Positions 59,010 to 61,212 of a stretch of 64,000 nucleotides of DNA are shown here, one piece after another. This DNA comes from a virus. The stretch lies in UHGV virus genome UHGV-0287696; one strand, written 5' to 3'. Position numbers and translations under genes: made by a program. Under the pieces are notes generated by a model. It was not told the origin of the DNA and searched no databases. It was given only the letters and a program-made list of their open reading frames with translations. Position 1 is the stretch's first letter. Each line of letters opens with the position of its first letter.

Positions 59010-59471
59010 ATGAAAATCTTCACTTCCTTTTTAATCGCCCTTTTCGTAATCGGTTTCAATAGCGCACACGCCGCTATCAACAGCTGGGAACAAATACAAA
59101 ACCCTGGCCAGGCAGTTTACGAAATTGAAGACACCGCCGGAAACGGACTGTCTATCAACTGTGACACGGAAACTGCGAATCGCAAATTTTACGGTCGCAT
59201 GGTTTGGTATTACGGGGAACCCGTAGGTGCAACTAACGCTGAAGACAACACGATGGATATTGTCGTAAACGGCAAAACCTATAACATCCCTACCGTGGAC
59301 GGTAGTGACAAAGCAGAACACGCTTGGGTTGCTTTCGTTAATGCTATCGGTAATGCCAAAACTTTCAGTGTGAGTATCAATGGTAACGATGCCGCTAACT
59401 TTACCGTAGAAGGCGAACGTCTGTCTGAAACTTTCTTCCAAAACTGTGGACACACCCGTCCTAACAAATAA
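59010..59471 (+). CDS. secreted protein (signal peptide)
   Basis: 153 aa; N-terminus MKIFTSFLIALFVIGFNSAHA with AHA-A cleavage-like site. Confidence 0.6.
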   Translation: MKIFTSFLIALFVIGFNSAHAAINSWEQIQNPGQAVYEIEDTAGNGLSINCDTETANRKFYGRMVWYYGEPVGATNAEDNTMDIVVNGKTYNIPTVDGSDKAEHAWVAFVNAIGNAKTFSVSINGNDAANFTVEGERLSETFFQNCGHTRPNK

Positions 59472-59493
59472 CTATTAGTCTTTTTTAGAGTGC

Positions 59494-59886
59494 GTGAAAA
59501 TGAATATCAGAACTATACTTTATACCATCATTATTTTCTGTGCGGTCGGAATTACTGGCACTTATGCTTTCGGTGATTCGGATGTCCGCTATTACGAACC
59601 GGCTCCTGACTCACCGATTATCAACCCGGATGAGACGCCTACGTTAATGCGCAGTTTCGGTAAACTGCAAGTTTATCGTTTAGTGCGTGGTGAAACGTGT
59701 ACGGGATTACTCATTGCTGACACCCGTGCACAAGTCTACCAACGTCTAACCGATATTGCTTGCGAACAACCAAAGGTAATGTCGGTTAGTATCCATCCGC
59801 TATCAGTTGGTAACTATACCGCTGTGGACTTCTTTCACAACGCCGAATTAATAGGACGCGTTACCTTAAATCGTCCTGCCGAATAA
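59494..59886 (+). CDS. exported/membrane-anchored small protein
   Basis: 130 aa (ATG at 59500 is an alternative start); N-terminal hydrophobic segment ILYTIIIFCAVGITGTYAFG. Confidence 0.5.
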   Translation: MKMNIRTILYTIIIFCAVGITGTYAFGDSDVRYYEPAPDSPIINPDETPTLMRSFGKLQVYRLVRGETCTGLLIADTRAQVYQRLTDIACEQPKVMSVSIHPLSVGNYTAVDFFHNAELIGRVTLNRPAE

Positions 59887-59904
59887 TCTAAAGGAGTAGT
59901 TACA

Positions 59905-60390
59905 ATGAAACGTTTACACACTCTGATGTTCTTTCTGGTTTTCTTGTTTATCGGTGCCACGCCAACTGTAGATGCGGCCTCCGTAGACGAATTGCTTACC
60001 TGTGATGGAAACGCTTGGGAAGGTCAGCCAAATGCGTGCCCAAACATCAACGACTTGTACGATACCGATAAGTCGTTTAAAGCCGTTGTTGATAAAACAC
60101 TAGACCCTGTGGGACTGGATGGTATGTTCGGCTCTAAAGGTTACATGGATGGCCCTGGCGGTAACATGTATCCGGTAAACATCAACAACAAAATCTGGAT
60201 TGAAAGCGGCGGTTGTAAAGCTAACGCTTGTGGTTGGGAATACATCGTAACGCTATACAACCCACACACCAAGAAACTCGTCGGCTATTACTACAACATC
60301 GACCCCGGTTATCTGATTTGGTTCGGTGATATCGGTGTTGCCGAATTCGCTTACCTGGTTAAGAAATACGTAGAACAATCTAAATACTAA
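59905..60390 (+). CDS. secreted protein (signal peptide)
   Basis: 161 aa; MKRLHTLMFFLVFLFIGATPTVDA; AAGGAG Shine-Dalgarno. Confidence 0.6.
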   Translation: MKRLHTLMFFLVFLFIGATPTVDAASVDELLTCDGNAWEGQPNACPNINDLYDTDKSFKAVVDKTLDPVGLDGMFGSKGYMDGPGGNMYPVNINNKIWIESGGCKANACGWEYIVTLYNPHTKKLVGYYYNIDPGYLIWFGDIGVAEFAYLVKKYVEQSKY

Positions 60391-60401
60391 GGACTTTTAT
60401 C

Positions 60402-60812
60402 ATGAAAACTATCATTAATACTCTTCTCATTGCAATGGCTGTTCTGTTCTCTGTCAACGCTACAGCAAAAACAATACAGTTGCCAGACAATATTAAGTAC
60501 GTCAATAGCACCGATGATTTCTATTGTACGGAAATTGACGGCTTGTACTGTCAGGCAAAGAGCCTGTTTAAATACAAAGGTAGCAGATACGTATTCATCG
60601 TTGAGCAGGGTGGTGCCTGGTGTTACGACAGCCCAATGTCCGTACTCAACCTCGAAACGTGGAAGGCTCAGCGTCTCGAATACAACGACAAACGTCTGTG
60701 CTCTGGTAATAACAAACCATTCTTCGAAGTCGTAGATGGTGTGCCAATGGTAGGGATATTAGACACTTCGGAAAAACCTATCGTTGTAGCTATGGATAAA
60801 CTTAAAATTTAA
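60402..60812 (+). CDS. secreted protein (signal peptide)
   Basis: 136 aa; MKTIINTLLIAMAVLFSVNATA; contains Cys pairs. Confidence 0.6.
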   Translation: MKTIINTLLIAMAVLFSVNATAKTIQLPDNIKYVNSTDDFYCTEIDGLYCQAKSLFKYKGSRYVFIVEQGGAWCYDSPMSVLNLETWKAQRLEYNDKRLCSGNNKPFFEVVDGVPMVGILDTSEKPIVVAMDKLKI

Positions 60813-60822
60813 GGAGTAACTC

Positions 60823-61212
60823 ATGCGTCTCGTCTGCGTTTTAGCATTCTTCTTCTCCCTGAGTGTAGCAGCATCTACCCAAGTTAACGATTTACTGCTA
60901 ACCCCAAACAACAATACCGATTACCAGTACAATCCTCCGGGGTTTGAAGTTTGCGAAGTCGGTGAAACAATCTGCCAAGAAGTCGGCGCAGACGGGCGCT
61001 ATATTCTGGTAAAAGCTGACGGTGGCACAATGTGTCCCGCAGGTTATTACTTTCTGCTCGATTCCGTCGCAAGAGAGGTTCTTCCTATCACCACGAAAAC
61101 GTGCGACCCTACCGTTGTCTTAACTCTCGCTAAAAGCAAATCTCGCGACCGTTATCTGATCGTTATCGAAGAACGGGGCAAGATGGCGGGTGCTATTGAA
61201 TTAGATCATTGA
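60823..61212 (+). CDS. secreted protein (signal peptide)
   Basis: 129 aa; MRLVCVLAFFFSLSVAAS; AAGGAG Shine-Dalgarno. Confidence 0.6.
   Translation: MRLVCVLAFFFSLSVAASTQVNDLLLTPNNNTDYQYNPPGFEVCEVGETICQEVGADGRYILVKADGGTMCPAGYYFLLDSVAREVLPITTKTCDPTVVLTLAKSKSRDRYLIVIEERGKMAGAIELDH

Follow-up and report, generated by a model that had tools for sequence, protein, structure and literature searches.

We examined a cluster of five adjacent genes, P1 to P5, in a 64,000-nucleotide (nt) stretch of the virus genome UHGV-0287696 (hereafter, the window), which, from sequence comparison, we assign to an uncultivated SPN3US/phiEaH2-type jumbo phage of enterobacteria; its own host is probably an enterobacterium. 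The genes follow one another on the + strand with gaps of 22, 18, 11 and 10 nt, in order from P1/P2 to P4/P5, and encode small proteins that are probably exported to the periplasm and disulfide-bonded (Table 1). By homology, the cluster is a composite of three unrelated origins, with P1 and P3 common to the CP4-type islands of Escherichia coli. For P2, homolog alignments and the gene calls of relatives favour an ATG start at 59500, giving 128 amino acids (aa), over the GTG start.

No close DNA relative of the region was found in 50,697 phage records, in which the match was limited to an intergenic stretch of ~60 nt. The nearest sequences are uncultivated IMG/VR contigs of 220-225 kb (L006 at ~100%, L007 at 98%, and L008 and L009 at 80%), and close relatives of ~223 kb have been deposited inside Salmonella enterica assemblies and are also recorded in E. 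coli assemblies. At the protein level, tblastn detected orthologs of P2 and P4 in SPN3US-like jumbo phages of Salmonella, Escherichia, Erwinia and Proteus.

Predicted export signals and conserved cysteines

All five N-termini combine a basic n-region, an uncharged hydrophobic core of at least 10 residues (Kyte-Doolittle 2.8-3.3) and a small-x-small site, the classical features of a Sec-type signal peptide, which upholds the initial annotation of the cluster as a run of five consecutive small exported proteins. The cleavage sites predicted by reading the sequences of P1 to P5 are AHA/A, TYA/F, VDA/A, ATA/K and VAA/S, respectively. Export was called with a home-made n/h/c heuristic, which required the motif within ~30 residues and was applied to 74 non-overlapping open reading frames (ORFs) of the window. 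Six of these were flagged, namely P1 to P5 and one further ORF, which we discounted because its GTG start is likely to be mis-called; apart from these, a clear export signal was seen in the window only for a lipoprotein gene. At a background of ~3%, the chance of five such genes in a row is, by our own arithmetic, ~2e-8 per position and ~2e-6 for the window. Furthermore, a signal peptide is present in every ortholog while the signal sequence itself drifts.

The paired cysteines that had been noticed in several of the proteins were likewise borne out. P1 to P5 contain 2, 3, 4, 4 and 5 Cys in total, and the odd Cys of P2 and P5 falls inside the signal peptide, leaving 2, 2, 4, 4 and 4 in the mature parts. 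The invariant residues are C51/C146 in P1 (across YkfB/YfjT relatives), C69/C90 in P2, C9/C21/C80/C85 in P3 (mature numbering), C42/C74/C100 in P4, in which the fourth Cys is not invariant, and C27/C34/C54/C77 in P5 (mature numbering, in 31 sequences). Because signal peptides occur in all orthologs and the counts of conserved mature Cys are even, we read P1 to P5 as probably exported, disulfide-bonded periplasmic proteins.

The same features bear on two other readings of the N-termini. The hydrophobic segments could be uncleaved signal anchors, which would make the products inner-membrane factors that remodel or mark the membrane for genome entry or for the early infection vesicle of nucleus-forming phages, or a block to DNA entry by other phages like T4 Imm; each protein has a single hydrophobic segment, and cleavage is called by the home-made heuristic alone. 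Set against this, the h-regions are short and followed in all five by small-x-small motifs at positions 17-25, the even numbers of conserved Cys and the globular all-beta models fit soluble periplasmic domains, and E. coli Ivy, to which P3 is related, is used in its mature form without the signal peptide, Ivy[29-157] (PMC10139938). We consider anchoring highly improbable, and under either reading the bulk of each protein faces the periplasm. That the products are cytoplasmic or virion components with fortuitously hydrophobic N-termini is scarcely credible, given that the n-h-c architecture is found in five of five and kept across orthologs, that the conserved Cys are even in number, that P3 is related to a known periplasmic protein, and that gp180-183, the SPN3US genes at the corresponding locus, go unmentioned in the texts of the SPN3US papers searched.

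Table 1. Window coordinates of the five-gene cluster, of its flanking signals and of other features mentioned in the text. A slash marks a predicted signal peptide cleavage site.
Feature	Coordinates	Strand	Description
Terminator-like hairpin	58884-58903	+	8 bp stem with 7 GC pairs, then a T-run; closes the upstream gene block
Promoter-like motif TTTCAGATATATATTACTTA	58937-58956	+	Within an AT-rich stretch of ~45 nt; proposed phage RNA polymerase promoter of the operon
P1	59010-59471	+	153 aa; probably exported YfjT/YkfB-family protein; predicted signal peptide ~1-21, AHA/A; 2 conserved Cys
P2	59494-59886	+	130 aa from GTG; SPN3US gp180 ortholog (phrog_9424); predicted site TYA/F; 2 invariant mature Cys
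P3	59905-60390	+	161 aa; probably exported, Ivy-like; predicted signal peptide 1-24, VDA/A; 4 invariant Cys; loop GGCKANACGW
P4	60402-60812	+	136 aa; SPN3US gp182 ortholog (phrog_8968); assigned paralog of gp181 and P5; 4 mature Cys
P5	60823-61212	+	129 aa; SPN3US gp183 ortholog (phrog_5248); invariant CPAGYY motif; 4 invariant Cys
Terminator-like hairpin	61223-61243	+	8 bp stem with 7 GC pairs, then a T-run; closes the five-gene unit
Further copies of the 20-nt motif	18789-18808, 22592-22611, 54649-54668	+	
Discounted export candidate	5209-5811		Likely mis-called GTG start
Endolysin	27439-28029	+	GH108 + PG_binding_3
Lipoprotein	29423-29902	-	LAGC lipobox (MLKRFLIAMVGVFSLAGC); phrog_9559
phrog_8030 gene and two radical S-adenosylmethionine (SAM) genes	32433-35583	-	Radical-SAM genes: Pfam PF04055
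CxxxC-repeat ORFs	35721-36737	-	78, 132 and 132 aa
Upstream paralog pair	56296-57447, 57515-58288	+	Common C-terminal domain

Transcription unit and promoter-like motif

From the order of its signals, the cluster constitutes a single transcription unit, in which a hairpin, a promoter-like motif, the five genes and a second hairpin follow one another. A scan for sigma-70 promoters found none on the + strand, which is consistent with transcription by a phage RNA polymerase (RNAP). The 20-nt motif, TYTCAGATATATATTACYTA, occurs four times in the window and never on its - strand, versus zero expected, and the three copies that were inspected (those starting at 18789, 22592 and 58937) have extended flanks in common and lie between + strand genes. 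In addition, the motif is located upstream of the cluster's transcription unit in SPN3US, SPAsTU, phiEaH2, Huxley and Caitlin-like loci. It is nearly invariant across these five lineages, though their proteins are at most ~50% identical, and no other DNA of the region has matches in other genera. In phiKZ-like phages, early promoters are long, AT-rich and highly conserved, and are located upstream of hypothetical genes (PMC11512511). We conclude that the motif is probably a phage-RNAP promoter; TATATTAC was not found as a published promoter consensus in our literature search.

The conserved jumbo-phage genes P2, P4 and P5

P2, P4 and P5 are orthologs of SPN3US gp180, gp182 and gp183, respectively, and retain 26-55% identity to the proteins of more distant genera. 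All the SPN3US-like genera examined contain this core with its order unchanged, and three to four such genes (SPN3US gp180-183) are conserved throughout, so that the cluster is not the uncommon oddity for which it was initially taken. The loci of SPN3US and of Erwinia jumbo phages resemble the window in gene order, in the promoter motif and in the flanks (a P0-like gene upstream; P6, P7 and an SbcC-like gene downstream). Unlike SPN3US, the window lineage carries an Ivy-like protein, P3, in place of the gp181 paralog, and P1 has been added upstream. SPN3US gp180-183 and their orthologs are annotated solely as hypothetical, and the corresponding PHROGs (9424, 8968 and 5248 for P2, P4 and P5) are all annotated as function unknown.

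Family profiles were compared using hhalign with the signal peptides removed. P4 matched gp181 with a probability of 97.5% (E 9e-12), P5 matched gp181 with 95-96.5% (E 2e-8 to 8e-10), and P4 and P5 matched each other with 75-78% (E ~2e-5); the profile match between P2 and P5 was weak (34%, E 4e-4). On the strength of these profile matches, of the conserved Cys and of synteny, P4 and P5 are assigned to a paralog family found in jumbo phages only (SPN3US gp181/gp182/gp183), to which P2 possibly belongs as well. The P5 family comprises 38 clusters among 5.8 billion proteins, and all the named clusters come from jumbo phages or from a Salmonella enterica assembly. The predicted structure of P5 is all-beta and resembles two blades of a beta-propeller.

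P1, a member of the YfjT/YkfB family

Profile and alignment evidence places P1 in the uncharacterised YfjT/YkfB family. Precomputed annotation assigns Pfam PF27224 (YfjT) to 10 of 12 P1-family matches, and a HMMER search against 1.84e9 representatives returned 15 relatives, among them an E. coli/Shigella "CP4-6 prophage" cluster (1e-11), a "protein YkfB" cluster matched over its full length (2e-6), and proteins from Providencia and Vibrio. Aligned with YkfB of E. coli K-12, P1 has a signal peptide in common with it and shows invariance at two Cys as well as at Gly, Trp and Phe positions, and these are the features by which it resembles YfjT and YkfB of the cryptic prophages CP4-57 and CP4-6. 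Identity to the island, Providencia and metagenome relatives is 21-27%, compared with 76% inside the phage clade. By tblastn, P1 had no match in the phage records, and among phages it is confined to the clade of the window. In K-12, ykfB lies in CP4-6 beside the lipoprotein gene yafY and upstream of antirestriction, RadC and toxin-antitoxin genes; whereas the named family members reside in cryptic prophages, P1 is a gene of a lytic jumbo phage. We found no functional literature on YkfB or YfjT, and since the family has no known function, the membership of P1 is uninformative with respect to mechanism.

P3, an Ivy-like protein

P3 occupies the slot of gp181 in SPN3US, yet is unrelated to gp181, and it had no tblastn match in the phage records. 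We identified homologs with ~65% identity and nearly the same signal peptide in 138 of 5,426 complete E. coli genomes, where CP4-type islands carry them, with a dynamin-like GTPase/YjcZ/patatin module on one side and the DUF932/antirestriction/RadC/CbtA-CbeA module on the other. PADLOC gave only weak matches for the island neighbours (LeoBC-like, 2e-4; phospholipase effector, 3e-6). In the E. coli loci L017-L024, the homolog lies at 8001-8483 or 8001-8642, directly after the dynamin-like GTPase/YjcZ/patatin trio and a 180-aa gene that lacks annotation; in some strains, either the gene call for the homolog is longer, at 213-227 aa, or IS1 truncates it.

Three convergent, individually weak signals connect P3 with the lysozyme inhibitor Ivy. 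First, hhalign aligned GGCKANACGW of P3 with ACKPHDCGS of Ivy, together with the flanking strands, at E 3e-4 versus 0.71 for shuffled Ivy. Second, Ivy (NF007443) was the sole NCBIfam match, at E 0.0013 and 18.6 bits, far below the cut-off of 180; no match was found in Pfam, where the Ivy family is presumably PF08816, at E up to 1. Third, Ivy was the best fold match of a P3 model of moderate quality, which was predicted with AF2 from 11 sequences and no templates (pLDDT 67, pTM 0.64). The model has a sheet of four strands, preceded by helices and followed by one C-terminal helix; in the Ivy fold, helices flank a central antiparallel sheet. In the P3 model, the segment C80-K-x-x-x-C85-G-W forms a low-confidence loop between strands 72-79 and 90-95. 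A beta-1,4-mannanase (3vup_A, E 0.0044, profile residues 45-120), the sole match of the P3 profile among Protein Data Bank (PDB) sequences, was regarded as probably spurious.

P3 is similar in size to Ivy (E. coli ykfE/b0220; P. aeruginosa Ivyp1/Ivyp2; PDB 1uuz and 1xs0) and, judged by its sequence, is also targeted to the periplasm. Its loop, C-K-x-[N/H]-x-C-G, is located at the position of CKPHDCG in Ivy, between two beta-strands. Within the P3 family, both Cys of the loop, the Lys and the following Gly are invariant, and the Pro and Asp of Ivy are not kept. A loop between two antiparallel strands is the geometry of the Ivy, MliC, PliC and PliG inhibitors (PMC7677548). P3 differs from Ivy in overall identity (~10-13%), in an extra N-terminal Cys pair and in additional helices; furthermore, Ivy is a chromosomal gene of the Rcs regulon, whereas P3 is a gene of a lytic jumbo phage and of CP4-type islands. 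On these grounds P3 is likely to be a divergent homolog of Ivy. Because it fell below the curated cut-offs and the Ivy histidine is lost in the phage copies, we call P3 Ivy-like, as a divergent subfamily outside the Ivy family as delimited by the curated thresholds.

Cassette turnover and selection

Comparison of the related loci revealed gain, loss and replacement of genes. L029 and L031 contain six exported genes in a row, including two YfjT-like copies, and Huxley-type phages have the three core genes only. In L030 (6427-6879) and L032 (1489-1941), P3 and P4 are replaced by one protein of 150 aa, which has kept the signal peptide of P3 (62% identity over 24 residues) and joined it to an unrelated mature domain, for which neither Pfam nor NCBIfam gave a match; the replacement is that of a relative of the phage found inside a Salmonella enterica assembly. 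L006, in which P1 is 93% and P2 to P5 are 100% identical to the window, contains an additional 123-aa ORF (2770-3141) between the promoter motif and P1 that is absent from the window. From this comparison, we attribute the difference at the 5' end of the L006 operon to a local indel and recombination. Synonymous divergence (dS) is mosaic, too: in L007, dS is 1.2 for P1 and ~0.15 for P2 and P3, and in L008, P3 to P5 are much more diverged than P1 and P2. For all five genes, the ratio of nonsynonymous to synonymous divergence (dN/dS) is 0.02-0.16, similar to the neighbouring genes, indicating purifying selection. Taken at sequence level, P1 to P5 are genuine genes with a function, and the locus that holds them exchanges cassettes.

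Such turnover would also be expected of a neutral hot spot for selfish or moron cassettes that have no function in common, in which the common signal peptides would merely reflect a recombination route shared with CP4-type elements. The three unrelated origins, the turnover of cassettes between closely related phages, the swap that retained a signal peptide but exchanged the mature domain and the mosaic dS all agree with neutrality, which we nevertheless hold to be very unlikely: the order P2-P4-P5 holds throughout the SPN3US-like genera examined, with 26-55% identity, purifying selection on every gene is strong, the unit has one promoter and one terminator, and all the incoming cassettes are exported, which argues for selection on the compartment.

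Possible function of the operon

We tentatively propose that the operon is a periplasmic module for cell wall protection and superinfection exclusion. In this scheme, all five products would carry cleavable Sec signal peptides and would most likely be small, disulfide-bonded soluble proteins of the periplasm, with P4, P5 and possibly P2 as jumbo-phage-specific paralogs whose fold may resemble two beta-propeller blades, and with P3 and P1 as two cassettes common to the phage and the E. coli CP4-type integrative elements. The proteins would accumulate in the periplasm after infection and bind incoming proteins that cleave peptidoglycan or penetrate the envelope. P3 would work in the manner of Ivy, by inserting its disulfide-clamped CK-x-N/H-x-C loop into the active-site cleft of its target enzyme, a lysozyme or lytic transglycosylase; the most plausible target would be the tail lysin of a superinfecting phage. 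The outcome would be superinfection exclusion and resistance to lysis from without during the infection cycle, comparable to the effect of Spackle for T4. We infer export, cleavage, the timing of expression, the binding targets and the exclusion phenotype. By analogy with Ivy, the prospect that P3 inhibits a peptidoglycan glycosidase is, in our view, evenly balanced; that P1, P2, P4 and P5 would act as periplasmic binders or inhibitors is a guess from analogy and co-transcription alone. A protective role fits the locus because relatives of P1 and P3 are found in the cargo of integrative elements.

Precedents exist for the type of activity proposed. Ivy is a periplasmic protein that strongly inhibits C-type lysozymes (PMC2267010) and weakly inhibits lytic transglycosylases (PMC10139938). 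T4 Spackle (gp61.3) is an early-expressed, disulfide-containing periplasmic protein that inhibits the gp5 tail lysozyme and confers superinfection exclusion (PMC7677548). Spackle is an alpha-helical bundle of 75 residues that binds beside the cleft and acts allosterically, whereas P3 is beta-rich with a predicted loop insertion; T4 uses this one protein, whereas the operon in the window has five, and no similarity to Spackle in sequence or fold was found among them. MliC/PliC and PliG act in the compartment that we predict for P1 to P5 and share a similar size and a beta-rich, disulfide-containing build. We considered whether all five proteins might be lysozyme inhibitors of known types and rejected this, as hhalign gave no signal to MliC or PliG. 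Scans of the five proteins against Pfam, NCBIfam and PADLOC gave no family above threshold and no defence-system match. The exclusion or peptidoglycan-related function suggested in the initial annotation finds support in one protein, the Ivy-like P3, and the other four provide no functional lead. Nothing in the analysis points to lipopolysaccharide remodelling or to inhibition of secretion systems, which had been suggested as well.

Several observations weigh against the protective role. The hhalign probabilities of the five families to MliC/PliG were at most 0.6%, no better than shuffled controls; P1, P2, P4 and P5 showed no similarity to Ivy; and the profiles of these four families yielded only noise against all PDB sequences, among which the P3 profile did not recover Ivy. 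At the position of the Ivy histidine, the E. coli island copies of P3 have His (CKAHAC) and the phage copies have Asn (CKANAC or CKSNAC); in Ivy, this histidine reportedly contacts the catalytic residues of lysozyme. E. coli Ivy is itself a weak inhibitor of lytic transglycosylases (PMC10139938). No tail-lysin domain, and hence no candidate target, was found in the neighbouring large virion proteins. Gene-wide dN/dS of the five genes, computed from few sequences, gave no signal of an arms race, and we place the promoter only tentatively in the early class, through its likeness to the phiKZ-like promoters described elsewhere (PMC11512511).

A role in the timing of the phage's own lysis would draw on some of the same evidence. 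The proteins could be antiholin-like, as T4 RI, or could restrain the GH108 endolysin or a spanin: the phage encodes an endolysin with GH108 and PG_binding_3 domains and a nearby lipoprotein, an Ivy-like inhibitor of peptidoglycan glycosidases could act on the endolysin, and Spackle mutants also alter lysis inhibition (PMC7677548). However, the cluster and the endolysin region are ~30 kb apart and belong to different transcription units, and the promoter motif of the cluster also precedes blocks of small + strand genes elsewhere in the window but was not detected on the - strand, where the virion-protein genes of the window lie. Moreover, there are no lysis genes beside the P1 and P3 relatives in the stretches of CP4-type elements examined, and PHROG and Pfam scans detected no similarity to holins or antiholins. 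Lysis timing is, on this balance, unlikely.

We likewise give little credence to protection against envelope attack by agents other than phages, such as animal lysozyme in the gut, peptidoglycan-degrading type VI effectors or bacteriocins of competitors, or host autolysins that envelope stress releases, during the infection cycle or in a carrier state. A small, beta-rich, disulfide-containing periplasmic protein is a typical form of immunity protein, the Ivy histidine is retained by the island copies of P3 in E. coli, relatives of the phage occur in Salmonella enterica and E. coli assemblies, and Ivy is active against vertebrate C-type lysozyme, with Salmonella having no ivy homolog (PMC2267010). 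These points are offset by the lack of MliC/PliG similarity and of any PADLOC match for the five proteins; in addition, nothing links P2, P4 and P5 to such effectors, and P3 of the phage has lost the histidine. A broader and decidedly unlikely version of wall protection would make the locus a periplasmic immunity array, that is, a recombination hot spot of nucleus-forming jumbo phages and CP4-type elements at which inhibitor cassettes are swapped behind reusable signal peptides, each directed against a different wall-degrading weapon (tail lysins, type VI effectors or bacteriocins), with the gp181/182/183 paralogs forming a hetero-oligomeric beta-propeller platform for binding.

Other features of the window

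Outside the cluster, the window contains genes for tail fibres, large virion proteins, a baseplate protein, the GH108 endolysin and radical-SAM proteins. The cluster is followed on its 3' side by two conserved hypothetical genes and, in relatives, by an SbcC-like gene, which is essential (PMC5105663). Upstream lies a local pair of paralogs on the + strand with a common C-terminal domain, both of which match phrog_26772, phrog_33648 and phrog_24489 at their C-termini, with the ends ...GSQLLFVADL and ...GKQLLFIADV...

The lipoprotein, located ~1.4 kb from the endolysin, could be a spanin or another envelope protein. Additionally, three ORFs on the - strand resemble one another over ~50 N-terminal residues and carry CxxxC repeats in their C-terminal parts, where 20-21 Cys are spaced mostly by 3-4; both 132-aa ORFs match phrog_6085, and the three ORFs adjoin the phrog_8030 gene and the two radical-SAM genes. 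Together, the CxxxC-repeat ORFs and the radical-SAM genes look like a system for RiPP-type products or a crosslinked structural protein within the virion gene block.

Implications

Periplasmic inhibitors of wall-degrading enzymes are already known in phages, Spackle being the example. In the literature searched, we did not find descriptions of a phage Ivy-type protein, of a multi-gene exported module of nucleus-forming jumbo phages, of cassette exchange with CP4-type islands or of a swap that preserves the signal peptide, and these aspects of the locus appear to be new.

To conclude, nucleus-forming jumbo phages have been studied mainly for the protection of their DNA inside the cell, and this locus suggests that they also have a dedicated, conserved set of periplasmic proteins. 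Should P3 inhibit enzymes that cleave peptidoglycan, it would be an inhibitor of the Ivy type carried by a phage, none of which was found in the 50,697 phage records, and would give phages a second means, structurally unrelated to Spackle, of dealing with the problem that Spackle solves for T4. For YfjT, YkfB and an unnamed CP4-island protein, which are of the "y-ome" type, the locus provides the hypothesis of periplasmic protection against phages or lysins. The genetics of SPN3US, with its amber mutants, makes gp180-183 directly testable, and exclusion genes matter for the design of phage cocktails against Salmonella and E. coli.

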